64,000 nt of DNA from Paraspadella gotoi (Eukaryota; Animalia; Chaetognatha): assembly GCA_051294375.1 (NCBI GenBank), contig CM119267.1, forward strand, positions 11,361,865-11,425,864, written 5' to 3'. The notes beneath the pieces were generated by a model. It was not told where the DNA came from and made no database searches. It was given only the letters and a program-made list of their open reading frames with translations. The position numbers were made by a program, and so were the translations under genes. Numbering within the stretch: the stretch's first letter is position 1; each line of letters starts with the position of its first letter. This document shows positions 9,626 to 62,159 of the stretch, piece after piece.

Positions 9626-11694
9626 GGCAGCAGGGGCTGGTGACAGGTGAGACAGAATAACGACAGGCGATACCGCGCCGCTAATTTAAAGGAGAACCGT
9701 GGATTCCTCGAGGTGGAGAAAAAGGGGGAGGGGGTGGGAGGAACTCATGAATGGAATTAATCGGTACGAAGTGGTTGGAAGAAAGTCTATAGGGGAATTA
9801 CAGAGTGTATCAAGCGTACTGTCACTTTACAAATGAATACGGTGACTCAGTACGGTTATAAAAAATGCATTTACTGTACTCGTTAGATCCAGAAGTTATT
9901 ACAGTTTTATATGATAATAGTTTGAAAATAGTTTTAGTAGTATAATATACTATATGCATCTACCATTATATGCTGAATCATAACATACTAAATTTTTAGC
10001 ATGTCACAGTTTCTTGAAACCAGAGTGTAACCAGGGAGTAACCGGGTAAGAGCTAACATTTTATGAATTTCTTGAATCGGTTGTCTTTTGTGTGTTACTC
10101 GAATGAACGGATATAGTTCAAGTTAGCGGTATGAGTCACGCAAATCAGTCGGGAAATCATTAATTCGTGAGATGGAAGCGCCGAGTTTTAATGGTGACAA
10201 AAGGCTTTAAATTCGAGATTGTAAAAATAGAGAGAAGGAAAAGATTCTGGCGGATATCGATCGAATGAGCGTTCGTTAGTTTTGAACGTGAATTTAACAA
10301 GAAATGAGCCACTTCGACGTTGAGCGCCGTTTGCGCGAGCGGGAGGGAATAAGACTACCGCAGCAAAAAAATTTTAAAAACCCGATTCTCGTGAGTCTGA
10401 ACCGATTTAATCGTGTTTTAACTTTTTTCAAAAAACCAATTATGCGTCGTAGACTCAGCTGGCGCGGCTGCGTTCTTTTCCAGTGCATAATCAACTCTCT
10501 CTCTCTCTCTTGCTCCCCCTCCTCTTCCCCGTTCCCGAGTCAACAACGTCGATGAGATTAATATTTTTTTTTTCTATTCTGATATCGTTTACCTATAACG
10601 TCAGAGTTTTAAACAATGGATTTATCTTAACTCATTTTATTGCTATACTTGATCATGATCTTGCTTTTAAAAGAAAAAGGAAATGAGGGTAAGTTCTGGG
10701 GAGAGGAATCCGGACAAACGGGGGAGGAACAGGAAGGTAAGGAGAAAGAAATCCAATAAGTCGCCGGCGACGAGACCCGAAATCTGACCTTCAATGATGG
10801 CCCACCAAATAATGGGGCCAGTGAATGGCGGGGTGTTGAAAAAGAGGGGGAGAGGAGGGTAGGGGAAGGGAGAAGAGGAGAGAAGGAGAGAACAGGTAGA
10901 TGGAAGAATAAGAATATTAGCACGAGTAGTGAGGAGGTGTGGACGCAACAAGTTTCAGGGTTATAACAATAACAATCAAAAAGCTCAGATGCTAAGTCTA
11001 TAACAATGGATATTTACAAAGGTCAATGTTTGACCATAAAGAGAATAGCAAAACAATTGAGGGTAAGGTTGAAGTAAGGTCAACTGGTTTGACTGAGGTT
11101 GCGTGTTACAGTTGTCCGTCCACAGAGGTTTTTTATCTTGGCAAAGGATATCTGGATGATGTGAGAGAGATATGAATCTCACATCGACATCGTGATCGTT
11201 TCTCACCGCAATGAAATCCGAGTCTCTTTCTCAACTTATTTCACTGCCTCAGAGTGCGCGAAGACAAAGGAGCTTTAAAATTGAGGAAGGAAAGTAAAGC
11301 GAATATCAATATGAATACTTTTAACTTTGATAAAAATAGAACAACGAACACTAGAAACCCGAAAACCCACCCGGCGTCGTTCGAGTCCGTCGAGGGTGAC
11401 GCCACCCCCATTATTCTCCGGATGAAATGACGCCGGAATCTCGGCGTCGAAATTCACAAAGCCGCGGGGGCGGAACGACGATATATGGAACCGGGTTTAG
11501 GAGGGCGCCACGTGAGGAGAGAGTAATAATTGGTGAGGGGTGGAAATAATTATGGCGGGTACAAAGGGAGTAACATTCAATATGGGGTTAAATTAAAGAA
11601 TCAAAACTAATGTTTACGTTAATCAATCAATTGTAGCTTCCTTTATCATTTATGGGAAAAATGACGACCGAAAGTAAGAAATTGAGAAAGTTAC

Positions 11695-12138: not shown

Positions 12139-12921
12139 CGGAGAAAGGCGAAACTTGTAAAATTACGTGAGAAAGGAAACGTAGGTGAAATAATGAACGG
12201 TTAATACAGGTCGCACTCAAAGCTTTCAATGATAGTTAAATCCAAGCTTTAAGAGATTTTAAGATTGTCAAAGATTGAATGGGCACTATGAGGCATTTTG
12301 ACCTTTGACTTTTTAGATCATTATTTTGAAGCTCTTTCAATTAGATATTCATTTTTCATTATGTCTAAAACAATTTTCATTGACATGTACGATATGATTT
12401 TAGGAAGATATAATAACAAAAACAAAACCATGATCCATCTCTCTCGGAAGGAAATAATAAGAAAGAGAAAAGAAAGAAAAAAGCCGTCGAGACGATACAC
12501 TTGACCGCCACTCGACTTGGGACCGATGGAAGAACGTTCATTTCCGGTTGAAAACAACGAGCCGCGCCCCCTCGCCTCCACGCCACTCCCACGCTCGGTT
12601 ACCAGCTCGAGAACCGAACAGGAAATTAAAAAAAATGAGAGGGGGGAGGGACAGACGATAGAGATAAAGATAAACACGAAAACCACAACAAACATGAACT
12701 CAATCTTCTCTCGCCACGAGAAAAAGCGCCGTCGGGAATAAGTGGAGAGACCGAGAAGCAAATGAAACAAAAAAGTGATCAACAGAGAGTATGTTTTATG
12801 TCTCGACCAAATTGAGAGTGAAAAGCTTGAGAAAAAGAGAGATAGACTGGGTACATCGTGGAGTCATTAGGGATCGACGAAACCCCACCAAGTCGAAGAA
12901 GGCACCTGAAAAAGTTGCCGT

Positions 12922-13100
12922 TATGGCAATAGTCGGGTTGCCTGTGATACCCATTGGGATGGGGCATCGCACTGTTGGCTTTGGGGGCTTCCGACCCTCA
13001 GTGGCGCCTCCTGGCGCGGTTACCCTAGCACGGTCTCGTTTTTGCCAACGCAGAGGGACTGTGGATGAAACATAACGCTTGGGGTGGTGTGTTCCCCCTC
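12922..13100 (-). mobile_element. Structured dispersed repeat (~180-200 bp), SINE/retroelement-5'-like
   Basis: Its reverse complement (GGGGAACACACCACCCCAAGCGTT...CCCTCTGCGTTGGCAAA...CACTGAGGGTCGGAAGCCCCCAAA...GCCCCATCCCAATGGG...TTGCCAT) aligns with substitutions to 36803-37008 and 60713-60909. Confidence 0.7.
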
Positions 13101-13791: not shown

Positions 13792-14387
13792 ATGGGCGCC
13801 GCTACGATTGAGCGCCAAGTTATTTCAGTGCCATCTTTAGGTGGACGGGTCAGGTGTTTTGATTGATTGGATGGTTGGTTTGTTATTCGATGGTTTGATG
13901 GTTGGTTTGTTGGTTAAGTAATTTGGATTTAATTTTCATTCTTTATTATTGCTTTCACGCTTTTCTTATTTGACTACTTTTTCAATCTTCTATTTTACAC
14001 GCAAAGTTAATTTACTTTTTAGGTTCTCTCATCTTAGATTTCTGTTATTTTAAAATAAATCAATAAAAACTTTCAACTGGTGAGTCACCAGTCACCACAA
14101 AAGTTCCCCATTCGAACTTTTAACTTTAGTAGATGTTAAACTTTTATAAACGAAATCTTTACGATGTAAATTCGATCATAGGGATTAGAAAAAAATTATG
14201 TATCGAAACAAATGGCTTTTTCAGCGGGAGAAGAACAAGACGTTAGACAAAGGTAGCCTTTATTTTAACTATGTTAATGTATTATCCAAGAATTTTTACT
14301 ATACTACTTTGTCAAGGCCATATAATTTATGTTGCTAAGTATGTTTCATGACAACGACAACGGCGGCGACGACATTGTCTGATTTCA

Positions 14388-14425
<38 letters not shown>

Positions 14426-17400
14426 AGGTCCAGCAATAAAGGCAACCTCGCGGACTCATCGACAACGAATCGCTCGGTCGGAATGCGTCCACAACAAGAA
14501 CCCCATCGCCATCATCTTCCGTCTCGCTGACTTCGTCCTTTTCGTCTACTGCTTCTTCAAGATCAAAAACTTGCAGTGGGATCACTTTGCCGGTTGGTCG
14601 TTTGACGCTTGCATGGTTACTTTTTTTGGTATCAGTCGCTACTGACGGATATGTGCCATCGTTGTTTGGTCTCATTCTTGCTGGTTGGCTGTTCAATGAA
14701 ATTGGTACAACCTATATAAATTTTTAAGTTGTGAACAACTTGTGCGCTTCATATTATTTACTCGGTTGTGTCAATAGGGTTTTCGTTCTAATGGTAAAAC
14801 TTACTAGGGTTAGTATAAAAGAGTCTGTGGAAAAATTCCGGCCACCGTCGTCGTTGCTCAATAATTGATTGATAATTTTTTTTCCGGAGGGCGGGGTTAA
14901 GCTTGTGTAAAGATGTCGACTTTGTTTAAACTTTTCTCTCAAACAGTTGGCCCACCTTTTTTCAATGTCCTCGTCGAAGTTACGAAAAATGTTCCGGCGA
15001 GAAATATAAATCAGAGGTAAGTATATTGTCTTTGAGATTTTTAAACTTTAATAATATGCTTTTATCCATTTTATCGCGATTCGTCTCATTTTCATTAAAG
15101 TTGACTTATGTAAAAATGACGGGGACTTTTCATTATGTATGAGTGGGCAATTGGGCATGACATAAATATTTAACCCCCCCCCGCTGCCAAAATTCACAGC
15201 GTCATCGTTCACCCTACCCTACAAATTCCGTCCTATGACACCAACATCGACTTTGCTACGGGTGTCCCCATTTGGTTCTGGTGCATTCAGATAACGGGCC
15301 TGATCCGACTCATGCTCAGTTGCTTCGTCTCCAGCGCCAACATGGACCTCCTGGGTCCGGGCCTTCGTCACAATTTGCCGCAGTTGGCCCGAACGATGTG
15401 GCTGAACCTCTTGGGCATCCTCCCTTTGCAGATCTTCTGTCTCCACTCGTACAGGGACTCTTTTCTTCTCCTGGCCATGCTGCTGGCCCTCTCTAAGCTA
15501 TACTTCTTTCACAATGATCTCTTCTGGTTGAAGCTGGTCGTGCCCGGGCCTCTCTACGACGCCTTCTTCATTATCTTCGCCGGCGCCGTGGCGGAAATCA
15601 TCTTGGTACTGGTTTGGATCAAACTGCCGGAGGTGAGTTGCGGCGACGAATTCAACCTGCAACACATGGGATGCATGGACCGTGACTGCCATCTACTGAC
15701 AACGGAATTCATGACGCCATGTCTTAACGAGACGTGGATGATCAAGCTGAACCATTCCCTCCCGCTGGTGACGACGCCGGCCACGATGCGAGACACAAAC
15801 GGCGAAAACTTCTTGGCCGTCAAGCTAGTCAACTACCTCTCCGGTTTGGACCAGCTCAACCGCGTCGCCCAGTACTACGTGTTTAAAGTGGCGCGTCGAT
15901 TCGCCGGAGGAGTTTTGTCGCCGATCGGGACGACCGAAGTTCTCTTCTCGATCCTCGTCCTCGCCTTCGGACTCGTTTGGTACAAGTGGAAGTTCTTCGG
16001 CCACATCAACACGCTGGTCGTTTCGCGGGAGGCGAAGCGGATCGAGTACGAGGATCAAATGTCCATCGTCGCTTCGTTTCAAGTAACGCACGAGCTGGAC
16101 GCCGCTTCGAAGAAGAACATCGCCGATCACTGCGAGATCAACCGCGTGAGGGTGTTGAGCATGAAGAGAAAGCCGGGGGAAGAGTGGACCTACGAGACTT
16201 TTCGGCAGTCGCTGCGGGGGATCGATCTCTTGTCGACTTACACGTTCAGGTAACTGACGGCCGGCTGTGGGATTTAATTTATTTGTATTTTTTAAAATTC
16301 AATAAATAAGTTTTTTCAGAAAAAAAATTTAATTCATACTATTCATGAGATCACTCTTATAATACTTATTACACTCCCTGCGATCTCAAAAAATTTTATG
16401 GGGCTTAAGTTGAAAAATACTCCAACCGTCTCACAAACGATGCATACTCAAACTTTCCCGACCCTTACCCGTTCCAGACGCGTACTCCCGAAAGCTTATA
16501 AAGACGCCATCGTGAACGAAGTGATCCGCCCGGCCGTGGCCATCGAGTTGAGGGTGTTCCGCGACATCAACTACGAAGTTCAGCTCGCGCTCTCCTACCA
16601 GTTCGAAGAGATACACTACGTCAAGGGCGACACGGTCTGGAACTACTCTGAGGACGCTCCCGGCATCTTATACCTCCGCAAGGGCATAATGATCGCCGTC
16701 TCTCCGGATTACGAAAACGGCGGACTCGTCAAACTCGGCCCGGGAGATTATTTCGGCGAACTGAGCATCGTCTACAGGTATTTTTTCTCTCTCTTTGTTT
16801 TGTAATGTTGTTCTACAGTTTTGAAAGATTTGTTTTGTTTTTTTAAAAAGAGTCGTTTTTACTGTGATCAACGCTTGACCGAGCTCTGAATTGCTTATCC
16901 TTAATTTTTTTTCAATTTGAGATTTAAAATTTAGAGAAAAAGTGTTTTTGAATTTGTTACAACAATTTATTTTAAGAGACAGACATGTCCGTCTATTAAA
17001 ATAAATTGTTGTAACAAATTCAAAAACACTTTGTTTTCTCTAAATATTAAACAACAACGAAAAGAAAGGATTATCACATGTAACAGATTTAAAATTTAAA
17101 AATATATTACATTTTCTTTTTTTTTGTTTTTTTTTGCCCCAGATATGTATCTCCCACCATCGTATTGGCCGTGACGAATTGCGAAGCTTGGATTCTCACC
17201 AAGAAAGACTTTAGGAAGTTCCTCAAGATTTTGCCGGCGGAAATTCGCCGACAGTTGCGCAAAAACCAACTGGACATTTTCACCGACGTCTTCTGCCGAT
17301 ACCACGTCAACATGAAGGTCATTCCGCTGATGAGTGAAAAAGACGAGAAATTGGCGACCGAGTTGGACGAGAACTACGTCTCAGTCTTTCCCAGCGAAAA

Positions 17401-20400
17401 TTATGATCTTCGACTCGACGCGGAACGGGCAAGTTAAATGTTTATTTAAAAAAATAATTTTGTATACATTTGACTAAAGGAAACTCTCTCTCTCTCATTT
17501 AATTATCACATTCCTTTTCACCTTTTCTTCTCGCTCTTCTCTCTCTTTATGCAACAGTCTTCTTTTCTCAAATTATTTTTTTAAAAAACAGGAAATAAGG
17601 AGAAGACAGATTATTTAAGGTTTAAGGTGTAAAGCAAAAATAAGAAGGTTATCTCAAAACAATTTAGTATCATTCAACTTTCAGCATGACAGTTGGTTGG
17701 ACTGGTTGATGACCCAACTACACGACGAGCAAAAGTTTTTTCAACTATGGACTCTTTCAGCTGGGGTCATTGGTGTTATTGCGTTCACACTGACGTTGAT
17801 AGATACAAGAGCTTATGACATCTCGGACGTTTTTTTTCCCGCCAATCCATACGCGCTTTTCACAATTTTCAAGAAGAATCTTCCCCTTGGAATAATCGGC
17901 ATAGTTATGTTCGTAATGTCGGTATTTTTTTTGGTCGATTTTATAATTTGCATGATCGTTGCGGTAAATACACCTTATGGTCTCTTGTACGGTAAAAAAA
18001 ATCTGAGAAGAAAATTAGGTCCTTCGGACGGGCTGACCAACTACGTTAAGATTTTCAGCATCCCCTTCATTGGATTTCGAGTCTTGAGAATCAGAGATTT
18101 TTTCAACGACAATAGCAACAATAAAATGCAGATTGCTTTTTTCGTAACATTACTAACTTGTACGATATATTTGTTGTGTCATTACTGTGTGAGATTTACC
18201 GACCATTTGCTGAGGCAATCTTGGACCACCTCTCATCACTTTTGCAAAACATTTTGGAGGACGGAATGGAAAAACAGTAGCCATTTATTCACCCTTATGA
18301 ACAAGACTATTCAAAATGTTACTTTTCCAATTTTTAATAATACGTTACTCGATAACTCCACCAAGCCCAATTTAACATTGATCATTTTTAATTCGAGTTC
18401 CCCCGACTGGTATCTTCAACCATGCTGGAACAGCACAAAAAATAATTCGGTAAAATGTAATTATTTGAGTTTTTTAAAAAGAAACGTTGAACTTTCGTTC
18501 GAGTTTGGAAAAATATGCGCAAATAAAGATATGTATGACTCCGAGACTAAGAATTTCTATCAATATTATTGTCAAACGTTGCTAACTTTTATGACCGTAG
18601 CGATACGCCAAGGAGGATATTTTATCGCCTATTTCGCCGAGGACACTAGAAGGGCTGCGCCCCTGCTTATTTCTGTCCTCACCTGTCTCTTTGTGCGGGC
18701 CTTTATCGAAGCCTTGTTCATCATGATGTTTACGATCAAATTTAGCAAAGTGATGCAGTTTTATCGGCGGATCGATTCGTTGGAGCATCTCTTGAAGCGT
18801 CGCGGGTCTCTGAGAAAGCACCGAACCGATCTGCTCAATTTTATGATCACGTCCCACGCCGAGGTCAATCGGATAAGTCAACCATGGGAGGCGCCGTTGC
18901 TTTATTCAGTTCCCGGAAGCCTGAGAATCAACGCGAAAAAGAGGCAGTTGTTCTTTGATCAAACAGTCTTCATGAAGGACAGAATCGAAGTGATTACGAG
19001 CATCATTCTCTCGGCCAAAGAGTATTTCTATCCACCGGGAAATTTAATTACCCACGTTGGGGATTTCATCCCCAGATTTTTCCTCATTTCCAACGGATAT
19101 GTTTTTCAGATCGACGAGTTGGGAAACGTGAGTAAGCGAGGTCCCGGTTTTATCTTCGGGACGATTAGCATGTGGACCGGGCGACAATTCGTTACCACAA
19201 TATCCCTGACCTATGTGCACTTATATGTGGTAGACAAGGAAAGCTTTCTAGAAGCTTTGGGGGAAAATGATTATCGGAAACGGCAATTGCTTTTTCACTA
19301 TTCCTCTTCGATGACAGAGGTTTTATGGGTTCACAGAAGACTTCACAAAATTATTCAAGATTTCGATTTCGCTGACGTGAAAGCGGAAGAAATCATGAAA
19401 AAACATAGATTCACCAATACTCCGGTTGATTGTTACCAACGAAAAGAAAAAGGCTTGAGAAGTAATTGCTTCTCTAAAGTATTTATGTTGAATAATGTAT
19501 ACAGTCCGCATTCGTGGTACGGAATTATCGTTTGGCACGTTCGGATACAAGTGTTATACTTCTCAGTGATAACTACGATCATTCAAATAACAACCTTCAG
19601 GATAACTGGTGGTTTTTCTGTTACTAATTGCGTTTTTGATGTGTTTTTGACAGTCGAGGCGTTTTTCAGAATGAATCAAGGTTATTATAATGAAAAAGGA
19701 ATATGTGTTATGGATGCCCTTCTATGTGCAACACATTGGTGGAAAAAATATGCATTTTTGGACATTATAACGTTATTTCCATTCCACGCTTTTCTTTTTG
19801 CTCTTCCGAGAATTGGATATTTTATAGGGCTTTCACTGCGTTTATTGAGAATAATTCCACTGTATTTATTAATAGAGTGCTGTAAAAAAGCTTATCCTAA
19901 ACATATCATTATAGTGGCTATGCTAGAGACTATATATAGCGTATTCCTTCTGATGAATTTGGTTTTAATGTGTAAGTATAACTTTATAAGGAAAACCGAA
20001 AAAAAAACTTAAAATTGTAATTCATAATTAACTTATGAAAAAGTAATTACAAGTAGAAAGCCTTATTTAAAATTAACTTTTCTATTGACAATTTTATGGC
20101 ACTATTTCCCGAAAGCGCTTCATTTCTGTTCCTTAATCTTTAAGGTTTATAATAAACTTATATCTTACCTTAATTTTTTACTAAATTTATAATCTATCCC
20201 TAACTAAATCATTAACCGTAATCCCGAGTGATAATCTTTAAGTCACCAACCTCATCCCTCATCCTATTTCTACCCTAATATATAAACCTAATTCTAAACC
20301 TAATCTTTAAACCTTGAAAGTATTTAATTCTAAATTTAAGCTGAAATAGGGCGCTTTTTGAAAATAGGGTCAATTTGATAATATATTTTCTTCTTAAATT

Positions 20401-23400
20401 CATGAATAAAGGTTTTATGGTTATATTATTCTCAGTATAAGTAGCCATAGCNNNNNNNNNNTTTTATTGTAAAATATTTTTTTTATACATATATAAATAA
20501 TATATAGTACTACCTTTCTCAGATTGAATAAAAAAGTTTATTTTTAAAATTATAATTATATTTATATAAATATTTTTATATATTATATAATAATATAAAC
20601 AATTTAAAAATTTATTTTTCTAGCATTTGGGACTCACAAGCAACACTGTGCGACGATTTTTGTTTTTAATGAGACTTTTTTTAAATTTTGCATTGTATAG
20701 AGAAAACGCTTTTGAGTTAAGCCCGCGCTTTACCTGATTTGAATAGTAACATCAATACAGTGTCTGTCAATTGTGTTCAAAATTGAAAAAAATGAAGGCT
20801 TGACTATACAGTTTTCACCTAAAAAACCAGTTCATTTGATTGCTTTATCAAGCAATTAAGATTGCAAGAATTTTAATTTTGCTTTTTTTCATCATGTAGA
20901 GAAGACAATAAGGTTTCGGAAACTGTACTAATATGTATGATTTGGTCTTTTTTACTTGGAATAGGGAAAAAACGACCTGACCAGTCTATTTAAATACCAT
21001 TTTTGGGCATGATAAAATGGGAATTTCGATCGCGCTCTACCTCTATTGGCTTCCCAAGACGCCAAGCTTTCGAAATCTGCCCATATTGATATAATTTTTT
21101 TGGGCCGTGACTATGCAGTTTTGAATAGAAGTGAAATATAAAGGAATCTTGATCGGAGCTTCGATTCTAACGATGCTCATCTCTAATTATTCTCAGTATA
21201 AGGTGATCGTACGTTTTTTGGTAACTTTCATGTTTCGGCCGCATTTCACTTTGCGGTAGTTTTCCTTGTAAAGTTTCAAGTTTTGTCGTCTGCGATCAAA
21301 CGGCGATCAAAACATCAAATGGAACTTTCGTCAAGTGCACGAATCCCGATTGGCCAATGCGCTGGTACGACTCCCGGTTGCTCAATGCGACTTTTGATTC
21401 TTTTTCCGCACAACTCCAACGCGACCAGATGAGCCTCTTCCAGCAGCGAGAGTTACATTGTCATCGACCGTCAATGAGAGACGGAGAATTTTGCGAGAAA
21501 TTCCAGGAAGCCATGGAGAGATACTTCGTCTCCTCCTACAAGCATCCCGAGCTGGGCGAGGCCAATCCGCTTATTTGGATTCAAACAGAATACGTGGAAA
21601 TCAGCACCTATTACATCATCGCTCTCTACTGGGCCGGACAGTTTATTGGAAAAAATTTTATCGTCAATATGGCGACGTTGAATTTCGGGGAAATCATCCA
21701 GCATTTGATTTGGACAGGGTTGTTTTACCTCATCTACCAACTAGTGCTTTCGGAATACATCGCGGCCAACATCAACTATGATCTCTATGAGGCGGAAATG
21801 TTCCTCAAGATAGTCGCTCTCCACGAATACTTTAAAAAGTCGGCATTGAGAAAGCTGTTGTCCAAGGAAGACGTGGGAACGCTCAACGCCCGCGCGAGGC
21901 AGTACGAGGAAATGACGTTCGCGTCGAGAAATTACATACTGGAAAAAGAGGTGGCAACTCTGCCGAAGCTCAAGATCATGAATATCCGCTACAAAGCCGC
22001 TGAGGATGCATTTTTTCAGATGGCTCTTGATCGGAGGCTGACGTTGGCGCAGATGAAACTCTTGGCTTCTCGACTCAAACTCATCCACGTGCCCAGGGGC
22101 GAATACATCCTAAGGACTCACGACGTCGTCTCCTCCATCATAATAATCAGAGATGGGATCTTCACCATGCTCGACGAGGCAGATCTTCAACCGCCGCGGA
22201 AATCTACCAAATCAAAATCTAGAAAATCAACTAAATCCGCGAAATCTCGGAAATCCGCCGGCGCCTCCGGCCTCAACGTCAACCGGGATCACATGAAAAC
22301 TCACAAGTTGGCCGGCAAAGAGATCGAGGTGGCCGAGGACGAGTTGACCATCGGAGATTGCGTCGGTCTCAGAGGCTTAGACAGGACGTTTGACATCGGC
22401 GTCTGCAGCCTGGTAGCCAAAGTTCCTTCGACGATCTTTGTGCTGGACTCTGAAGACATGGAGATCTTGACGGGCAACTTCGGGATCGAGGTGGACACCA
22501 TCAAGGCCGTCATTCAGTCCTGCGTCGATTATTCCATCTACAAGATCAACAGATTTTATCGTCGAGCGCGAATCCTGAGGAGATATTCGAGAAGAATCAA
22601 GAAGGATGATAGGGAAAAAGAAAAGGAGAAGCTGAGGAAGAAGCAGGAATCATTTTGGAAGCGCCGCATGGAAAAGTTCAAGAATGATCGCATGATCTTC
22701 CACCCCGGAGAGACGGGCGTCAACATCTTTTTTATCATCACGAGCACTTTCAAGATCATCACCATCCTTTTCGTGATTGTCTACGCTGCCTTTCTCGGTC
22801 TCGACAAAGACAACACCGTCCCGGCCTGGCTCTTCGCCGTCCTCATCATCGTCTTTACCATCGTCGTCATTATCGAGATCTGCTTCAAGCTTCACGTCGG
22901 CTTCATCGAGAAGGACACAGGCAAAATTATCCTTTATCCTCTGGTGGTTTACAACAATTACAAACGGACAAGAACGGAGCTGCTTCTCGACGGGATTTCG
23001 CTGATGCCGATTTGGGTGGTATACTTTGGACTGTGCAAGTGGCCGGACTTGGAGGTGGAGAGAATGGGGTTGGCGACCTTCTTGGTGCGCCTGGTGATGC
23101 TGCTGCCGCTGACGCCGCTCTTCATTCAGATCCATCGAGCGCTGTACTATTTCAACTGGCCTTCCCAGGCCCGACCATACAATTTTCATGTCACAAAGTT
23201 TAAGTACGTGACTCGTGCCTTTCACACCATAATCTTTTTGGTCAGCATAGCCACGGTGCTGTGGATGCAAGTTGGGTGCCCCAACGGTACCTTGTCCCCT
23301 GCCCGTTGCTCAAAGAACGGGTGGATCTACGTGGCATGGCACGTGCGGGGCAGGATGCGAACGTCGACCGCCCTCTTGTTGCACGCTTGGTCCTTCACGG

Positions 23401-23878
23401 CGTCGCTCGGTGCCGGCGGTTATTACGAGGATATTGTACCTCACAATCTGTGGGAAATGATTGTCGTCGTTATTTTGATGATTGGATTTACGCTTATAAC
23501 GGCCAAAATTCAGGTGAGAAAGTGATCATAGTGTGAAAGTGTTTCATAGTGTAACAATGAACCTTTAAAATCTATCATGAAGCTTATGATCGTTTTTCAT
23601 CTAAACTCAAGGAGTAATAATAAAAAACTCTATTTGTGAAAAAAAAGGGAACAAACTCAAATTTATTTTTCATTTATTGTCTCAAGGCCGACGTGGTGAC
23701 CTCAATGTACGCGTTCATCGCCCAGGAGCAGGACAAGGAAGAAGAGGAGTCGCAAGTAGCCTCCCACATGGAGACTCTTAAGCTGAACAAGTCGCTTGCC
23801 AACAGAATCCAGGGTTACTTGAAGGTTTGATTGTGAAAATGTGCTTGTTTGCTTTCTTGGTTTCTTGGTTTTTTGGTT

Positions 23879-23963
<85 letters not shown>

Positions 23964-25718
23964 AACCCATTTTCCTTCTTTTCTCCTCAACCCCAAGGTT
24001 CACTACGCGACGGGGGAAGACTCTCCTTTCCAAGAGATTTTCTCCGACCTTCACACCTGCCTTCGCCAAGATTGTCAGCACGCCATCGCCGGCGACTTTC
24101 TCTCCAAGATTCGTCCGTTGGGTCAACTTCCGATTGGAGTGCGACGCTACTTGTCCACCTTCGTCCGGGAACGCCTCTTCATCTCCGGGGACGAGATCAT
24201 CCAGCGCGGGCAGGTAAGTTTCGGGGGAGTTGGGTCGTTTTCGAAGGTTAAATCTTTGAAGACGCTAAGATTGGAAGTCTTGAGTTGAATGAAAAATGTC
24301 GTTTTGACGAAATTTACATGATGTAAGTTGTGTATAAGTTTAAAAGGTAAATTGTTTTTTTTTTCACTTTTAGCATTTTTTAAAAACAGAAAATTTTTTT
24401 CGGGCAGTTTGACCGTCCTGTTTGTATTCAAATTCTAGCTAAAATTTAACAATAAATTTTCCAATATGTTGCGCCGCAGTGACTTTGTTTTAACTTGTAT
24501 TGCCCTTTGATCAAATGATATGACATGACATGGCATGACATGACTAAAGAACTTTCTTTGCCTGTGTGTTTATGACATTCACTGCATCAAAATTCCGTTT
24601 TTTTCAGTCCCTTAGATTTGAGATTTTTTCTGTCTTATCGAATGAGCAACCAACTATAGGTAAATTATATGCATTTTTATCATAAGTGGGAGAGAACGAC
24701 AGAGAGACATACCGATGGACCGACCGACAGACGGACGACAGACGGACCGACAGAACGACCGAAAAGAGACTTTTAGAGTTGCTCCGCCAGTATTCGTGGC
24801 GCAACTAATAAAATTCACCTTTGTAAACGAAAAAATTTAACTTTAAATTTAAATTTAATTATAAGTAATATAATTTTATTAAAACAATTGACATTGAGAA
24901 GGTAAATCTGCACAAATGACTTGCTAATTTACTTCCTTCCCTAGGTTCTCGACGCCTTTTACTACGTCACTTCCGGTCAAGCCTTGCTCGGTATCGGCGC
25001 CGGCAAGAACTTCCGTACTTTCCGGGTGAGACCCGGCGAAGTGGTGAACCCCGTGCCGGATATCCGACTCGGCCGCGCCTCCTTCGACTGCCTTGCGTTG
25101 GTCAACACGACCATCTTCCTCATCGACATGGCTGACATCAGCCGGGTCCTGCTGGGGCTGCTGGCGCTGGAGACGTGGACGCCGGCGGAGAATCGATCCC
25201 GCTCCGTCGCTCACGACCACGACGACGATGAAAACGAGAGCGCGTTCGCGGATCCGGAGGAAGAGAGGATCCTCGTCGTCAGGGAGGAAGAGGAGGATGA
25301 AGAGGAGGAGGAGGAAGAAGATGATGAGGTCGACAAGAAACCGGAAACGAAAAACAAAAGAAAATTGAGAAAGTTGGGAAGGAAAAAGAGGACGGGCATC
25401 AAGAGGAGAGTTGGAAAAAACTTTAACGCGAAAAGCGACGAGGGGAAGATCGAAGATCCGAACGAAAACAACAACAACAAAAGCGCCGCTTCCTCTGCCA
25501 AAGATGACTCCTCTTCTTCCTCTTCCTCCTCCTCCTCCTCCTCATCCTCCAACGAATCGAACGCGACGAGAACCAACGCCAACTCGAACAGCCACGTAAA
25601 TAAGAACCGAGATTTTCGGGAAGGGGGTCGGGGTCAATGGTCATTGGTCGCGGTCGTGCGTGACGTCATTAATTACATTCTCATCCCCCCTCCCTCCGGG
25701 GGAGCTGGCAGAGTATAA
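13792..25718 (+). CDS. Four-repeat cyclic-nucleotide-binding-domain cation channel (CNGK/tetraKCNG-like architecture), highly divergent, ~2,520 aa
   Basis: Phase-compatible exon chain: 13792-13840 (tentative start), 14428-14592, 14947-15016, 15200-16249, 16478-16777, 17143-17428, 17685-19971, 21274-23513, 23687-23824, 23998-24213, 24945-25718. Total 7575 nt, a multiple of 3 with no internal stop. Four repeats each show an S1 lead-in (CVHNKNP / VFFPANP / VYSPHS / IFHPGE), an S3 motif (e.g. FLDIITLFPF, LLDGISLMP), pore/S6, C-linker and a CNBD (GDYFGELSI; FYPPGNLITHVGD...GFIFG; VPRGEYILR...GDCVG; FISGDEIIQRGQ...FYYVTSG). The first two exons, the AAG acceptor at 21274 (beyond an N-gap) and the 3' end are less certain. 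Confidence 0.85.
16923..17051. repeat. Near-perfect intronic palindrome (foldback/MITE-like), ~55-60-bp arms
   Basis: TTAGAGAAAAAGTGTTTTTGAATTTGTTACAACAATTTATTTTAA is mirrored by TTAAAATAAATTGTTGTAACAAATTCAAAAACACTTTGTTTTCTCTAA around a short spacer. Confidence 0.85.
20102..20367. mobile_element. MITE-like element with TIRs and internal degenerate (CCTAA-like) repeats, intronic
   Basis: The left end CTATTTCCCGAAAGCGCTTCATTTC resembles the reverse complement of the right end (CTATTTTCAAAAAGCGCCCTATTTC). The interior is rich in CCTAAT/CCTTAA/CCTCAT units. Confidence 0.5.
23877..23962. repeat. (TTTC)n microsatellite in channel intron
   Basis: Directly visible. Confidence 0.95.
24448..24812 (-). 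mobile_element. Non-autonomous Helentron-type element (HINE/DINE-1-like), family A
   Basis: On the minus strand: T-run, TAGTTGCGCC subterminal repeat with a hairpin, (GTCC/GTCT/GTCG)n microsatellite, then the inverted GCGGCGCAAC near the far end. Homologous in inverted orientation to 32305-32610. Confidence 0.6.
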
Positions 25719-25848
25719 CTATAATAAACGTAATTATTGTTACATTTTTGCGCTTTAATGACGCAATTTCGTTTCGCGCCGTTGATTGTTTTTTCCCCAG
25801 AGTTGCCCTTCATTAATTCCCTCCGCTATCGCCCAAAAAAAGCGCTCT

Positions 25849-25937
<89 letters not shown>

Positions 25938-26045
25938 GCTCTCTGTAAAGCAATTTCTCATCCGCCGACACGTTAAGCTCCTTTCCGCCATTTTATGACG
26001 GAATCATTTTTTTCTTGTTCTCGTTTCTTCGTTTCTTCGTTTTTC

Positions 26046-26104
<59 letters not shown>

Positions 26105-26177
26105 CTCTCTCCTCTCTCTCTCTCTCTCTCTCTTCTTTCCGTCGGGGGGCGCGCACGGTCGACTCGGAATCCGCCAG

Positions 26178-27505
26178 GACCAAGTCGGTCAACCCGGTCA
26201 TCGACCCATTGCGACCTCTGCCGACCCAGAAGCGCCCGCAGCCACCGTGAGATTTGCTTGGATGTAGGGGTTGTTTCCTTGTTATTGTTTTGGTTGTTGT
26301 TGTTGTTTATGGGGAAATCGTAAGATAAGCTAATAAAATGTTGTGACGCATGGTTTTCAAATTCGTCTGATTTTGACTGCTATTACCTGTTTTTTAAGTA
26401 ATCATGTCTGTCTTCGTTTGTTAACTGTTTGTGCATCCAATAGCTGACCAGCTTGCGAGGACGTTGAGAAAAATACTGGTGACGTTAATGAGTAATGAGT
26501 GATCACGATTAATAAATAATTTATTGATTAATCAAAAGTTAAGGTTTTCACAACTCTTTTATGTTTTTTTATTGACTCCCAGGGACAACGCAAACCAAGG
26601 AACGGCGCCCGATGAGTAAGCCACCATCCCCAAATTAAAATGTAGTCTAATACCAATAATACAACAACTTACAAAACAATCAAAACGACTCCAACAACCG
26701 CAACAACGACAGCAACGCAACGACCCATCACAACGACGTCTCCAAGCCTTCGTAACCTCCCATGAACCCGCTCTGCAGCCCGTTGGCGTCGCTGATTGCG
26801 GGCGTAAGCGTCGAAGCGATCGCCGACAAAGAAGCCACCTTCGTGGACGAGCGTCTCCAAGCGCTCAAGGAGGAAGAGGAGGAAAACAGCGACAGCACCG
26901 ACCTCTTCGAAGACGACGAGGACGACGTCGAGGACGAACTCATGATGGCGGCCGATCGCTTCAACGAGACTCTGGTCAACATCAAACTCGTTCTTGGGGA
27001 GAGAGTGAAGAAGGTGGGGGTCGATCGGACANNNNNNNNNNCAATCAATCAATCAATCAATCAATCTTTCAATCAATCATCAATACTATCAATCTATAAA
27101 CTTTTTAAACGGCAGCGTCTACTCGCACTGGAGAAATGGTCCGAAATGTTGAATAAGATTTATCCGCTGATTCATCAAGTCGGCGCTCATCATTTGGCCA
27201 AGAAGCTTGCTTGGCTCTGCTTGGAGGAGAACATGGCTCTCAACGTACCGGGTGACTAAAACTTTTTTTTATTAAATAATTTTTTTCTTTTAATAATAAA
27301 TAGCAGTTGGGTTTCATCTTTCGATTTAGAAGCAGTAGAAGGAGAAGGAACCAATGAAGAACGGAAGACTACCGTTAAAATCGGCGGCGTTGAGGGTAAG
27401 TTGAGATTGAAAGAAAGAAAGAAAGACAGAAAGAGAAAAAATAAAAGAGCAACGATTTTATCGATTTCTTCAGCAGCGACAACTGCCGAGAAATCCAAGA
27501 ACTGA
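26178..27505 (+). CDS. Chain of six small coding exons for an acidic protein segment; alternative C-terminus of the channel or a separate gene
   Basis: AG/GT-bounded, phase-compatible exons 26178-26246, 26583-26615, 26779-27013, 27116-27251, 27330-27395, 27474-27505 (TGA). They read TKSVNPVIDPLRPLPTQKRPQPP-DNANQGTAPD-DPLASLIAGVSVEAIADKEATF...EDDEDDVEDELMMAADRFNETLVNIKLVLGERVKK-RLLALEKWSEMLNKIY...-EAVEGEGTNEERKTTVKIGGVE-AATTAEKSKN*. The upstream link is unresolved. Confidence 0.5.
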
Positions 27506-28011
27506 ACATCAGAGTCTCAAGAGACTAACCTGTCGATCAGCGCCGGACCTTAAAAAATGTTCAGTCTCCTGACTTTAGTGATTCGTCGTCGTTTAATGTG
27601 TTATCGTAACTTATTCGTAGTCAATTAAAATGCATGTGGATCAAGTTTGTTTTATTTTAGGTGATTCTCAGTTTTTGTTGTTAGTTGTTATAGTCTGTAG
27701 TACAAAACTTATAAAAATAGTAATATTTTCAATTTTTCACACATAAATGCATAAGATTGATTAAGTGCATAAAAGCATATGATCGAAATAAAAATTTACA
27801 TCGACTACGAACCAAATGTAAAGTAGTATTCATGTATTTACCACGTCGTACAAAATTCGTTTCTTTCTGTCGTGAATTCGATCGCTTTTTATATGGACGA
27901 CGCCACAGAGGTTGCCAGTAACGATGCGCCCTCTTCGATTCTATCGCCGATGACGTCGCGGCGCTCGCGACGCCGCGCCACCTGAACCGAATACGAGCGA
28001 TCATTGCCAAA

Positions 28012-28051
<40 letters not shown>

Positions 28052-28634
28052 CTCGAGCCTTATAAAAACGTCATGATCGTCGTCGTCGTCGTCACCTGCT
28101 TCCCAAAGAACATCTGACGCGCAAAGAGAAAGTCTCTACTGGCGGCTGCGGCTTTCGGCTCCAACCCATTCGCCCATCACGTCCTCGTTCGCCGATTTCC
28201 TTTCGAGAGCGGCGGCGTTGTTGTTGTTGTTGTTGTGCTCAGTTTATGATAAATTCATTTTTTTTTGGCGGGCAATGTGCCCCCCCCCTTTTTTTGATAG
28301 AGCTACTTTTGCAGACCGCGTCGATTTTGAAAGGAATCTAGTCGATAACTTTAGCGATAATCGATGTTGGTAAACGTGAAAGTCATTTCGTTTCCTTCAC
28401 GAGTTCACAGTGAAAACCGAAAACGTAAGCGGCTCAAAATAAGAGAGTTGTGATCGTCGTCGTCGTCGTCGTCACTTGGCTCGACGTTACGAACGTGAAA
28501 ACGTTTTTGATTAAAAACCCAAAATAGGGAATGAATCAATGCAACCAGTGTCGTCATTGACTGAGAGGAATTCGGTATCATTTTTTCGTTTTGAGTGGTT
28601 TGATGGCGGTGGGAGAGAAGAGAGAGGAGAGAGA

Positions 28635-28675
<41 letters not shown>

Positions 28676-29146
28676 CTTATAATTGAGATGCCCACCTTTA
28701 AAAAGATCTCCGAACTACATGAAGAATTCAACATATTAAACTTTAATTTTAATTTTAACTTTAATTTTCACTTTAACTTTAATTTTAATTCCTTATCTTT
28801 CCAACATGACTAAAATTTTTATTCCGGGTTCGAGTCATAAATTTCTCCAATTGAACTTTGCGCGGAATTCCGCTCATCCCACGATTGAAATACCTTCACG
28901 CTATCGCTCTCACGTCACGAATTAAGATTTACCAGATCTCCACGATTCATCACGTTTCTCACAGAATTTCTCGTATTTGTTTTATTTTACAGTGGGGATA
29001 ATTTTCTCAGAAGTTAGACGGTTAGGCAATTTTCTTTCTTAGTATAGTTTTGAATTGAAGACAAACCTGCGCGAAATCGACTGGAAAAGAAATCCATTAA
29101 ACATACACACAGTGTCACACACACACACTCTCTCTCTGCTCAATCT

Positions 29147-29190
<44 letters not shown>

Positions 29191-29800
29191 TCTTTCTCTC
29201 TCTCTCTTCTCTCTTCTCTCTTCTCTCTCTCTCTCTCTCTCTCTCTCCTCTCTTCTCTCTCTCTCTCTCTCTCTCTCTCACTTTCTCTCTCTTCTCATTC
29301 TCGTTTTCTGCTGGCCTCGTCGTCAAATCCATTCCCGGCGACGAGATAAAAAGCTTCGATTTGCCTCTTACTCTTCGTCGTCGTCTTCGTCTTCGTCGTC
29401 GTCTTCGTCGTCGTCAATCTCGCCCAGCCCCAGTAAGAAAAAAAAAAGAGCGACCGTTTCCGAGCTCGATGACGTAATAATGGTCTTCGTCCCTTTCGTC
29501 ATCGTCTTCGTCGTCGTCGGCTTCGTCGTCGCCGCCGCTCAGAAATTTTACGACTTACCAATCTTCGTTTAAATATTGATTTAATAAAAAAAAAAAAACC
29601 AAAAAAAAAACTGAAAAATATTAATCCAATTTGTCATTCGGAAATGAAAGGCTTTTTCCCTCGCGAAGGTTAAAACCCCAACGCTTCGTGGAGAAATCCT
29701 CATTCAGCCTCGAGTCGTTCGACAGAATGAAGAGGGAAGATCTTTTTCTTGAAGGAAAAAAAAAGGAGGAGCCGTGACGAGAACTGTCGCGCACGCGAAT

Positions 29801-29831
<31 letters not shown>

Positions 29832-29996
29832 AAAAAAAGAAGAGTTAACGACCGAGAAAAATTCTCGAACGAAATCGAAAACAAAAATTCTAAACGTTGC
29901 TCCGTCTCTCTATCTCTGTCTCTCTCTATTTCGGACATTGACATACTTTTTGTCCACAGCAAAACGAGAACAACTCAACCAAAAAAGACTTTCGCC

Positions 29997-31583
29997 ATGA
30001 CTTCGCCGTCGCCCTCGTCGACGATCCCTTCCACCCTCGGTCCCTCGTCCGTCTCCACGTTCGGCACAACTTCCGCCTTCTCCACCGCCGCCTCCCTTTC
30101 CACAAACGCCACTTTCCTACCCACCAACGCCACCTTCCTACCCACCAACGCCACCTTATTACCCACCAACGCCTCTACCAACGCCTCCACCGGGTGCGAC
30201 GCCCTCGTCAATCACCACGACTTCACCGCCGGCAGCGTCGCCGCTTTTCTATCCATCCTCCCCAACGTGCTGCTGCTGCTGACGTTTCGGCTGGCGCGGC
30301 GCCGGGACAAGGCGGCGCCGATGGGCGTGGTTCACTTCAAGATCCTCGCTTTGCTAGACATCAGCTACGGAGTCGTCGACACGCTCGCCGACTTTCCCTT
30401 CAAAAAAGTTTTGGGGTAAAAGATGTCATGTGATGACGATGATGATAACGAGGATGATGGTGATGATGATGATTGTCATGATATTGGCTATCTGTCTATC
30501 TTTCTCACTCTCTGTCTCACTGTCTGTCTTTTTGAAGATCGTGATGAGGATTAAAACATTTTGAGTTACTTGAAATCTCCGCTCCCATATCTTACTTTGC
30601 CTATCGTTCTGGTATTTTCTTCCGGATATCCCGCTGCGCAACATTTTTTTATTTGCGGCTTGCCGCGACTCAATAAAATACGCTTACCGTCGATCTGACT
30701 TCAGTCTAGGTTAATCCATCTGTTTCTCTGTTTTTATCTTTCTATCTTTCTATCTTTCTATCTGAACATCATGGAAAGCGAACGCCTTTTTGAGCTCTTG
30801 CACTGCAACAATGAGAAAGCAACAGTGCAGAAAGAGCCGAAGGCGATCTCGCTGTTAATTTTTTCTCGCTCTATTGTATTAAAGAACATCAAATAATTCT
30901 CGAACCGTAACTTAAAGAAAGCTNNNNNNNNNNCTTCCGGATATCCCGCTGCGCAACATTTTTTTATTTGCGGCTTGCCGCGACTCAATAAAATACGCTT
31001 ACCGTCGATCTGATTTCAGTCTTCGTTAATCCATCTGTTTCTCTGTTTTTATTGCTATCTTTCTATCTTTCTATCTTTCTATCCGAACATCACGGAAAGC
31101 GAACGCCTTTTTGAGCTCTTGCGCTGCAACAATGAGAAAGCAACAATGCAGAAAGAGCCGAAGGCTATCTCGCTGTTAATTTTTTCTATCATTATTGTAA
31201 CAAAAGAACATCAAATAATTCTCGAACCGTAAGTTAAAGAAAGCTCAACTACTATTCGCCCTGTATCTTTTACGTAAAATACGTAGATGTAAAAAAAATG
31301 TATAACTCCAGCGGAGTTTAAACCTAAAGTCTAATTTCCCCAAGGAAATAATGATCGATTGGGCATAAAAACCATTTTTCTCAATAAACATCAGTCCGGT
31401 GTTATTCATGACCTGCCTCGACGGGTTTCTTCGTTAAAAGGCTCGCGACAGCAGAACCGTTTACACTGGTCTTCGAGGAGAAAACTTCAACTTAATTACA
31501 ATAATTGCGTTAAGGTTGGGGCTGGTTCAGAAAGAAAGAAAGAAAGAAAGAAGAAAGAAACAAAAGAAAGAAGAGAGGAGAGG

Positions 31584-31644
<61 letters not shown>

Positions 31645-34600: not shown

Positions 34601-34902
34601 CGGGCAACGTCCACGACATCTGCTTCTCCGTCAACTCGCGCCGTCAACTTCTTCCTCTTTCGTCGCCCGCCACTTCTTCCCTTCAAGCCGCACCTTCGTC
34701 GGTCTCCATCCGCGGATAATCGGCCGAGGACTTCCCCGCGCGCTTCATGAACACCGTGACGGCGCGACCGGAAGGAGGAAGGCGTGGCAGCGAGGAGCAA
34801 AGCACCTCATCGATCTAGTTGGAAAGAGGAGGACGGGGGAGACGAGCCTGGGGAACGGGATCGATCGAAGGGGAGGAAGAGAGGGTGGACGACTTGAAAT
34901 GA
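29997..34902 (+). CDS. Rhodopsin-like (class A) GPCR, peptide-receptor-like (FMRFamide/Srw-type); exons 2-5 of this copy carry indels
   Basis: Exons 29997-30415, 32106-32285, 32874-33081, 34051-34226, 34589-34902. The N-terminus is Ser/Thr-rich with NxS/T repeats. TM1 SVAAFLSILPNVLLLLTF; TM2 FKILALLDISYG (LAxxD); TM3 end FAIMTVKRLLALVQP (across frameshifts). TM6 LLVLLIAVSFAVLHAPFFVL and TM7 SVNSAVNFFLFVAANSSFKRTF read cleanly in the second copy at 58112-58935. Confidence 0.8.
30619..31245. repeat. ~305-bp direct duplication flanking the 10-N gap at 30924-30933 (two allelic versions)
   Basis: 30619-30923 and 30934-31245 both run CTTCCGGATATCCCGC...AAGAAAGCT with several substitutions. Confidence 0.85.
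32305..32610 (+). mobile_element. Non-autonomous Helentron-type element (HINE/DINE-1-like), family A, in GPCR intron
   Basis: T-run, GTGCGCC, hairpin CCGCGAG-TA-CTCGCGG, GTCGGTCTGTC microsatellite, GCGGCGCAAC, ending CTTGTT. Inverted homolog of 24448-24812. Confidence 0.6.
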
Positions 34903-35939
34903 GGTCTAGACGTGATTACCCGAGGGAGGGATTTCTTCTGTTGTTTCTTAATTTATCGATGCTAATTTTGTTTATTTTTTTAGATTTCTCTTCTTTACAT
35001 TATTTTTATTTCTATTTCGTACGATATCAAATCGCATTGATAATTATCATTTGATTTTCTTGGTATAAGAAAGAATGTTCAAGTCAAGATGCTGTCATTG
35101 CAGAATAGAAAACGCTAACGAGTTGCGTCTAGTATTGTTAAATGCGTGATTTGTCACTCGAGTACCAAACCAAAAGGCTGACAAATTTGCCCTCTATTTC
35201 TTTCGTCGGACCTTTCTATATTCCTTGCAAGAGTTTTTGCTTTTTAACGAAAAGTTTTGATTTTTGCCTAACAAGCTCAACACAACAAACAGAAAGGATT
35301 TTTTACAAGATGGTGTTTTATCCATATTATCATGACCACGCCTTTTGAATTCTAAAACAAAACGAAAAAATAGAAAATATTTTTTGTTCTTCACATTTAA
35401 GTCGTAGGCAGTCCGATCAATGGGAAAACTTGAATGCTTATTCAAAAGCCACAATTCCTTTGCCGCGATACGAACGGCGACCCCTCTGCCGCGAAACGAA
35501 CCGCGTCGCTCACGCCCGAGTTAGAGTTTGGCCCTCACCCGAAGAAGGGCGCCGCCTTCTCTCTGCCGCGACAGGGCGCCGTTTGTCTGATTGCGAAATT
35601 TTCTTCTTCGGCGCGGATTCGGATTTAATATCGTTCCTCATAAATTCATCAGACCTAGACGACGAGCTGAAATTCTCTCTCTCTCTCTCTCTCTCTCTCC
35701 ATATCTTTCTCTCTCTCCTTCTCTTCTCTCTTCTCTCTCTCTTCTCTCTCTCTCTCCTCTCTTCTCTCTCTCTCTCTCTCTCTCTGCTCACTTCTCTCAC
35801 GTTGGCTATTTCGTTTTCGACGGCTTAGCAGCAAGAATACGCAGTTTTCCGGCGAGAGATAAAAAGTGGAAAGGGGATTTAAGGTCAAGACTGAAGCGAA
35901 GCGTGGAGAGGTTGAGACAGAACAAGGGGAGACGAAAGG

Positions 35940-35970
<31 letters not shown>

Positions 35971-35977
35971 AAGGAGG

Positions 35978-36042
<65 letters not shown>

Positions 36043-36802: not shown

Positions 36803-37008
36803 AATGGGGAAACACAACCACACAAGCGTTGTGTCTATTCACAGTCGTAACGAACTTCCCTCTGCGTTGGCAAAGGCGAGACGCATCTTAGGGTAAACTC
36901 CCCCAGTAAACAGGAAGGCGTTCACTGAGGGATCGGAATGCCCCCGCAAACCAACAGTGAGAAGCCCCATCCCAATGGCATCAACAAGCACTGCCGGTGT
37001 TGCCATTA
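36803..37008 (+). mobile_element. Structured dispersed repeat (copy of the 12922-13100 family)
   Basis: Aligns to the reverse complement of 12922-13100; indel-rich copy. Confidence 0.65.

Positions 37009-38257: not shown

Positions 38258-38260
<3 letters not shown>
37752..38260 (+). mobile_element. Second HINE/DINE-like element (family B) with (GTCC)n and two ~175-bp core repeats
   Basis: T-run start TTTTTTAGTTGG, a (GTCC)n tract at ~37870-37921, then two tandem units AAAATTT(T)GTGTG..GGGTAG...AATCGTGC...AAAAACAAAAGT.ACATTT. Confidence 0.5.

Positions 38261-38299
<39 letters not shown>

Positions 38300-55673: not shown

Positions 55674-55734
<61 letters not shown>

Positions 55735-59670: not shown

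Positions 59671-59764
<94 letters not shown>

Positions 59765-59932: not shown

Positions 59933-60016
<84 letters not shown>

Positions 60017-62119: not shown

Positions 62120-62159
<40 letters not shown>

Follow-up and report, generated by a model that had tools for sequence, protein, structure and literature searches.

The window analysed here is a stretch of 64,000 nucleotides from the chaetognath Paraspadella gotoi (GenBank assembly GCA_051294375.1, contig CM119267.1, positions 11,361,865 to 11,425,864, forward strand). Its plus strand carries, at 14198-25718, an 11-exon gene whose spliced model gives a frame of 2,526 residues without an internal stop. The predicted protein consists of four repeats in one polypeptide, each composed of six transmembrane segments (6TM, S1-S6) with a pore, a C-linker and, after each repeat, a domain for the binding of cyclic nucleotides (CNBD). 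The filter signature of K+ channels is missing from all four pores, and K+ selectivity has almost certainly been lost in this protein. The gene is real, expressed and conserved in kind across unnamed relatives; its proposed function is read from the sequence.

Gene structure and transcript

The gene model comprises the following exons.

14198-14252, plus strand: coding part of exon 1, starting with the ATG at 14198; a stop lies in frame four codons upstream; RNA evidence indirect, with depth 90.7 against 93.8 expected in the bin
14428-14592, plus strand: exon 2, encoding S1 of repeat I; matched by the contig over 14435-14591, with a GT..AG joint
14947-15016, plus strand: exon 3; GT..AG joints at both ends
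15200-16249, plus strand: exon 4 (repeat I S2-S6, C-linker); contig piece, 0 differences
16478-16777, plus strand: exon 5 (CNBD I, in which GE is retained and the binding Arg has become Ser); PF00027 E 1.5e-4; contig piece
17143-17428, plus strand: exon 6, followed by a GC-AG intron at 17429-17684; contig joint 17427>17684
17685-19971, plus strand: exon 7 (all of repeat II; repeat III S1-S5); contig piece, 0 differences; relatives
21274-23513, plus strand: exon 8 (repeat III pore, CNBD III, repeat IV S1-S6); sole in-phase acceptor found, presumed splice from exon 7
23687-23824, plus strand: exon 9 (S6 end, C-linker IV); predicted from GT-AG and profile match, length fits the contig remainder
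23998-24213, plus strand: exon 10 (C-linker and CNBD IV); predicted from GT-AG and profile match, length fits the contig remainder
24945-25718, plus strand: exon 11 (CNBD IV, acidic and Ser-rich tail, stop); PF00027 E 0.057; 3' end predicted

A 7,439-base contig of run X1 aligns to the window in five pieces between 14435 and 19971 (exons 2-7) with 0 differing letters, and its four joints all fall at predicted introns, three of them GT..AG and one resolving to GC..AG. The RNA type of X1 is a guess ('RNA?'), but the spliced joints argue that it is RNA. None of the runs found to contain the sequence is on record as RNA, and runs X2 and X3 gave no aligned piece; neither point carries weight as evidence. 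Repeats I and II and the membrane part of repeat III, as far as S5, lie on one transcript, and we infer that exon 8 is linked to exon 7 in that same transcript. A remainder of 3,187 bases of the contig fits exons 8-11 by length: with these exons as modelled, its end would fall at 25537, within a run of TCC. Of the exon 8 words sampled, a fraction of 0.97 is present in X1. The region from the pore of repeat III through S6 of repeat IV is encoded within the single exon 8.

The gene is intact and is not a decayed copy. An unexpressed, decaying pseudogene, the case that the initial annotation had named against itself, was looked for and not found, the contig being spliced and the frame open. The broader explanation that the unusual pores stem from a pseudogene or an assembly artefact could draw on the error-rich duplicated segments in the window and on the exon 7-8 junction, which crosses an N gap and has a presumed splice; with 2,526 codons free of stops, a spliced contig that includes filters I and II and is identical over its five pieces, and unnamed relatives sharing the odd features, this explanation is largely refuted and hardly credible.

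At 14484-14815 the depth is 114, against 68 expected from the model, with a second contig over part of intron 2; this is possibly an alternative or retained segment. Exon 7 (17685-19971) has a GC content at third codon positions of 0.45, compared to 0.66-0.78 in the remaining large exons.

Repeat architecture and nucleotide-binding domains

Matches to PF00027 were obtained in four of the eight exon pieces scanned (E 1.5e-4, 4.4e-6, 2.1e-5 and 0.057), none of which reaches the curated cut-off. All four P. gotoi repeats are also matched by a profile that was built from the CNBD-channel repeats of the homologues found. With four CNBDs and four profile matches, the protein is of the four-repeat CNGK type, as the initial annotation had proposed. 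Besides CNBDs I and IV in the exon list, two further domains were delimited.

19029-19265, plus strand: CNBD II, binding Glu and Arg replaced; PF00027 E 4.4e-6 and alignment to HCN2
22083-22450, plus strand: CNBD III, which carries a basic insertion and has lost the binding Glu and Arg to other residues; PF00027 E 2.1e-5 (first part), relative P0037 36% identical, end approximate

The CNBD arginine is required for nucleotide binding. It is kept in nine of ten canonical domains examined, replaced in P. gotoi repeats I-III and, less clearly, found one position off in repeat IV. Because of its replacement in repeats I-III, cGMP gating via repeat III, as in the sea urchin channel, is unlikely, and cyclic nucleotides likely do not gate the P. 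gotoi protein. In CNGK work this residue is called crucial for binding (PMC4749565).

Structure prediction gave low confidence. The AlphaFold models of exons 8 and 7 have a mean predicted local distance difference test score (pLDDT) of 43.6 and 44.6, respectively, which is too weak to decide the state of the pore; both draw a helix across filter positions II and III, which was not counted as evidence. The exon 8 model matches CNG and HCN structures with E of about 1e-5 to 1e-4, and for the exon 7 model Foldseek found nothing at E <= 0.001.

Filter positions in the four pores

The initial annotation had located four pore motifs lacking the K+ signature, and all four lie in one spliced frame, beginning at 15867, 18585 (given earlier as about 18590), 21621 and 23385 (earlier about 23384).

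15867-15938, plus strand: pore peptide I, in the reading frame of the spliced model
18585-18632, plus strand: pore peptide II, in the reading frame of the spliced model
21621-21692, plus strand: pore peptide III, in the reading frame of the spliced model
23385-23456, plus strand: pore peptide IV, in the reading frame of the spliced model
15894-15917, plus strand: filter position I, RRFAGGVL; gap-free register from both flanks
18600-18623, plus strand: filter position II, AIRQGGYF; register uncertain by one residue
21648-21671, plus strand: filter position III, GKNFIVNM; alternative register ATLNFGEI eight residues later
23412-23435, plus strand: filter position IV, AGGYYEDI, the least changed of the four; read from the S6 side

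The TxGYG filter is required for K+ selectivity. The motif G[YF]G is absent from the whole 2,526-residue protein, so that none of the four pore loops has GYG or GFG and the hidden GYG that could have undone the initial annotation was not found in the protein. When scored against a reference of 13 GYGD loops from the homologues found, canonical filters reach 34-38, whereas the P. gotoi loops in their best-supported registers score -1.6, -4.5, -7.8 and +10.0. The absence of the K+ signature from every pore is therefore confirmed.

For filters I and III the pore-helix side and the S6 side independently agree on the register without gaps, T-T-x-G-Y-G-D-I being aligned to R-R-F-A-G-G-V-L in repeat I and to G-K-N-F-I-V-N-M in repeat III; the register of repeat IV requires an insertion of one or two residues. 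The Arg of repeat I and the Lys of repeat III then occupy the Thr position of TxGYG, and the Arg of repeat II lies one residue later in its favoured register. Gly-Gly recurs in filters I, II and IV. A T-x-[DEK]-x-W motif does not occur in the four loops.

A protein that is still a K+-selective CNGK would have to rely on the remnants TLNFGEI in repeat III and GGYYEDI in repeat IV. The octapeptide ATLNFGEI has the highest filter score of the entire protein (17.8), and both HMMER and MAFFT align it to GYGDI. This alternative register needs an 8-residue insertion before and a compensating 8-residue deletion after the motif, and its residue at the first Gly is Asn; the register without gaps is preferred from both flanks, and repeats I and II have no remnant at all. 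Retained K+ selectivity is accordingly very improbable.

Relatives, descent and selection

With exon 7 as query, a full HMMER search yielded 30 proteins, which by inspection were sorted into 15 fragments of a diverged lineage, 4 canonical CNGK-type proteins, 7 CNG-type proteins and 4 other CNBD proteins. The lineage fragments are 22-57% identical to the query, and those looked up carry no protein name; they may be other species' copies or paralogues. Among the named matches, the nearest come from Nematostella, Anneissia and Montipora and are of the four-repeat type (23-25% identity). For P. gotoi repeats II, III and IV the top-scoring profiles are canonical II, III and IV, respectively, and for repeat I it is canonical II. 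With repeat II the CNG profile (28.0) and the CNGK II profile (29.2) reach nearly the same score, whereas the other three repeats score far lower to CNG. The repeat tree, a quick version with long branches from which P0011 and P0017 were left out and which gives no further placement of repeats, unites the four diverged repeat II sequences in one clade on a very long stem (SH-aLRT, the Shimodaira-Hasegawa-like approximate likelihood ratio test, 100), with P0001 as sister to P. gotoi repeat II (SH-aLRT 98). Descent of the gene from CNGK is likely, and these comparisons assign it to an unnamed lineage with a long branch, probably derived from CNGK, that is conserved in kind across relatives.

Other searches added few sequences. 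A word-index protein search with exon 7 against longer proteins gave no match; with exon 8 it gave one match among proteins of near length, P0037, which covers neither pore, and none among shorter proteins. No relative turned up when metagenome contigs were scanned with exon 8 or with P0031, and pores I, III and IV of relatives were found neither by the exon 8 protein searches nor by the metagenome contig scans. The ESM Atlas held no usable match for exon 4; for exon 8 the top feature matches (0.95) were arthropod-dominated, unnamed CNBD clusters of 1,933-1,971 amino acids, with cNMP_binding in 93-100% and Ion_trans in 27-31% of the members. Compared by feature annotation alone, these clusters of about 1,950 amino acids suggest other diverged multi-repeat CNBD proteins, and they may be a parallel case, which would lower the novelty of the lineage. 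Separately, the unnamed single-repeat CNBD channel P0027 has a different non-GYG pore loop; such loops arise elsewhere too.

Pore II is covered by 6 of the 15 lineage fragments, two of which were replaced by their longer cluster-mates P0031 and P0036. Five of these six relatives read E-G-[S/N/A]-D, and the E, G and D are 3 of the 17 invariant columns among 193. In the favoured register this E is aligned with the first of the two Gly in GYG (29.1 vs 5.4 in summed score; two MAFFT runs agree), although one relative, P0002, prefers the alternative. The sixth sequence is the closest relative, P0001 (41% overall identity), which reads L-S-Y-G-G-V at filter II. Both P. gotoi, with Q and Y at these sites, and P0001 are without the E and D kept by the five more distant relatives. 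This suggests two steps, in which the K+ filter of repeat II first became an acidic loop and the acids were then lost on the P. gotoi branch.

In repeat II the pore also seems to have changed faster than its surroundings. Over the pore helix and filter of repeat II, P. gotoi and P0001 share 5 of 24 residues, which is the 8th percentile of 24-residue windows, whereas all 19 canonical repeat pairs at 32-51% identity keep 12-18 of 24. In three other segments the two proteins are more similar than average (48-57%), with 26/46 identical residues in S2-S3, 36/75 in the C-linker and 52/100 in the CNBD, which argues that selection persists outside the pore.

The initial annotation had put weight on the basic residues of the filters, and here the comparison does not support it: the repeat II Arg is Ser in P0001, the five other relatives are acidic at this loop, and Arg inside the K+ filter of KCNJ5 (G151R) causes a Na+ leak (PMC6834635). 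A ring of four basic residues was ruled out by the register analysis, R and K sharing one site in repeats I and III only. An anion-permeable pore formed by basic residues would be consistent with Arg and Lys at the same inward-facing site of the diagonal repeats I and III and with two further Arg nearby; with the repeat II Arg lost in P0001, E and D present in repeat IV, R and K making up 12% of the protein, so that two of four is near chance, and the Na+ leak in KCNJ5 (PMC6834635), we consider such a pore quite improbable.

Outer loops and voltage sensors

The S5-pore loops of repeats I-IV have 79, 125, 111 and 36 residues, compared to 26-45 in 11 canonical repeats. These loops, the loss of part of voltage sensor II and the loss of the CNBD arginine in three repeats are new beyond the initial annotation.

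15618-15854, plus strand: S5-pore loop of repeat I, 79 aa long, with 4 Cys and 2 sequons for N-glycosylation
18186-18560, plus strand: S5-pore loop of repeat II, 125 aa long, with 5 Cys and 9 sequons; all 6 relatives covering the loop have 117-132 aa here
21276-21608, plus strand: repeat III S5-pore loop, 111 aa, 4 Cys, 2 sequons
23265-23372, plus strand: repeat IV S5-pore loop, 36 aa (canonical length)
18054-18188, plus strand: repeat II S3-to-S5 segment, 45 aa; S3b and the first half of S4 missing

The combination of long loops in repeats I-III with a short loop IV agrees with what has been described for Nav, Cav and NALCN channels (PMC6259924) and brings in the strongest alternative, an asymmetric non-selective cation or Ca2+/Na+ channel that still conducts through a wide filter lined by side chains, with unequal loops as in Nav and Cav. 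Its case includes the E-G-[S/N/A]-D motif conserved in five of the six relatives covering pore II, and the Y-E-D-I-x-P retained by repeat IV. The first Gly of GYG, where the favoured register places the E, is what we take to be the Glu site of TLESW-type filters. The presence of Glu in that motif is described in PMC10120453, and the KCNJ5 mutant again illustrates that a damaged filter can yield a Na+ leak (PMC6834635). Repeat II of P. gotoi itself, however, has Q and Y in place of the E and D of its relatives; filters I and III have no acidic residue, and filter III has no Gly in its supported register; the E-G-x-D reading of the relatives rests on pore II, where P0002 prefers the other register. 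We regard a conducting cation or Ca2+ pore as a serious possibility, though on balance doubtful. A more elaborate scenario, in which the CNGK lineage took the Nav/Cav route, with asymmetry, glycosylated loops and an acidic filter, to become a Ca2+/Na+ sperm channel gated from outside, P. gotoi being further derived, is rather unlikely.

The S3-S5 segment of repeat II has 45 residues, against 72-77 in the six canonical repeats caught by the pattern, which corresponds to a deletion of about 28 residues; in the four relatives measured it has 45, 45, 45 and 40. The S4 segments of repeats I-IV contain 1, 3, 2 and 2 basic residues, compared to 3-5 in nine canonical S4s examined. These features bear on the idea of a proton channel like HCNL1, in which the central pore is dead and protons pass through a remodelled voltage sensor, that of repeat II being the candidate. 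HCNL1 is a precedent from the same superfamily and cell type (PMC7306766), the deletion in voltage sensor II is conserved, and basic residues are retained in S4. HCNL1 relies, however, on a regular Arg series with one Met gap (PMC7306766), and with so few basic residues in each S4 the same mechanism is not in place in P. gotoi, so that we consider proton conduction of this kind improbable.

A K+ filter lost and a pore possibly blocked

We tentatively favour a four-repeat CNGK-derived protein in which none of the repeats retains the K+ filter and the central pore may be blocked or nearly so, leaving a non-conducting sensor or scaffold. This reading is ranked first, with the asymmetric cation or Ca2+ pore as its nearest rival, because basic side chains are present in two opposite repeats, filter III lacks Gly and the pore evolves faster than the rest of the protein. 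The Arg of repeat I and the Lys of repeat III, at the Thr lining the inner filter site, would plug the pore from opposite repeats, and so would Phe-Ile-Val in place of Gly-Tyr-Gly in repeat III. The protein would then act via its enlarged outer loops, which are glycosylated and Cys-bearing and would likely bind an outside partner, and via the retained cytoplasmic domains of CNBD fold. By analogy with other CNGKs, expression is likely in sperm. The reading as non-K+ or non-conducting, made in the initial annotation, is a consequence of established filter biology, and HCNL1 provides a direct precedent (PMC7306766). The filter of HCNL1 is likewise gone and variable between relatives; this parallel was counted for the blocked pore.

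Several observations weigh against a blocked pore. Relaxed constraint was tested with one repeat and one relative, and over the filter II 8-mer alone P. gotoi and P0001 share 3 of 8 residues, which is about average. All seven repeat II sequences share the Gly that follows the filter site (one of 7 such columns of 181), which, together with the Gly-Gly of filters I, II and IV, indicates that the filter loop is not free to vary. A conducting ancestor is suggested by the acidic loop conserved in five relatives. Channels without the signature often leak instead of being blocked, as described for KCNJ5 G151R (PMC6834635) and for CNG channels with TIGE (PMC7576140). The quality of the AlphaFold models does not suffice to reveal a closed pore, and no ligand or partner is known for the role as sensor or scaffold.

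Assembly and other features in the window

The segment 41884-51778, which lies between N gaps, duplicates 21634-30922, a stretch comprising the 3' half of the gene and DNA downstream of it; the two are 86.6% identical and their alignment has 590 gap openings. Over exon 8 this copy has 94 insertions and 24 deletions, mostly of single bases, and transversions exceed transitions. A paralogue was rejected, as this is the error pattern of a raw long read; the copy is likely an uncorrected long read used in the assembly. A second large duplicate, 30938-40123 versus 54995-64000 (93% identical, 345 gap openings), is likely an assembly artefact too.

Short elements at about 12920-13060 and about 10965-11125 occur in many X1 contigs (bin depth 20,430) and likely represent an abundant transcribed repeat; Rfam gave no match in the window, these elements included. 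About 1 kb past the channel stop, at 26756-27505, a small acidic multi-exon gene on the same strand crosses an N gap. Exons of a gene resembling a G-protein-coupled receptor were recognised by eye at 29998-30419 and 58075-58932 (Ser/Thr-rich N-terminus and first helix; NSAVNFFLF-type last helix).

Comparison with known channels

The CNGK or tetraKCNG channels (sea urchin ApCNGK, zebrafish DrCNGK, Ciona tetraKCNG; PMC4749565, PMC8835908, PMC7576140) are the closest known system, with the same four 6TM-pore-C-linker-CNBD repeats in one chain. They are described as K+-selective and pseudo-symmetric, without repeat specialisation (PMC4749565, PMC6259924), and their pore carries GYG or GFG (PMC4749565). 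Unlike them, the P. gotoi protein has neither motif, its long S5-pore loops are unequal, voltage sensor II bears a deletion, the CNBD arginine is lost in at least three repeats, and repeat I is nearest to canonical II and not to I. Since it lacks the GYG filter, the symmetric short loops and the CNBD III arginine, we do not file it as a CNGK proper. The 'undescribed channel class' of the initial annotation is more aptly called an unnamed, strongly remodelled CNGK-derived subfamily.

In the titles and abstract openings surveyed no CNGK without GYG is described, although the pore alignment of PMC4749565 or Table S2 of PMC7576140 could hold a counter-example. Strong filter deviations are reported to be rare and, except in CNG channels, not clade-wide (PMC7576140). 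The lineage contradicts three published statements: the K+ selectivity of CNGKs, their pseudo-symmetry without repeat specialisation (PMC4749565, PMC6259924) and the restriction of deviations to less than a clade (PMC7576140).

HCNL1 of zebrafish sperm, in which the filter is absent and not conserved between species and the pore is non-conducting (PMC7306766), is a model for a dead pore: it is likewise a CNBD-family channel with a lost filter motif that is poorly conserved between relatives. A filter that is both absent and variable is found in repeat II of P. gotoi versus P0001 but not in the five more distant relatives. HCNL1 differs as a single-repeat HCN derivative with an Arg-rich S4 interrupted by a single Met (PMC7306766), whereas S4 charges are few in P. 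gotoi. If the pore is dead, the protein would be a four-repeat parallel to HCNL1, with the channel chassis retained for sensing.

Metazoan CNG channels (TIGE/TIGD filter; PMC7576140) are a CNBD clade that also left GYG and became non-selective; unlike the P. gotoi protein they are single-repeat, with a conserved filter and intact nucleotide binding. The Nav, Cav and NALCN channels (PMC6259924, PMC10120453) likewise have filters that are unequal, S5-pore loops that are long and contain Cys in some of the repeats, and a short loop IV; Glu at the filter site of repeat II is a further likeness in five relatives. Their described mark, long loops in I and III, rarely in II, and a short one in IV, is a pattern without counterpart in CNGKs (PMC6259924). 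They have no CNBD and possess a T-x-E/D/K-x-W filter including the Trp, whereas P. gotoi has CNBDs and no such filter, and any likeness would be convergent. If the P. gotoi pore conducts, it would be a second natural experiment in the evolution of an asymmetric non-K+ filter within a concatenated four-repeat channel.

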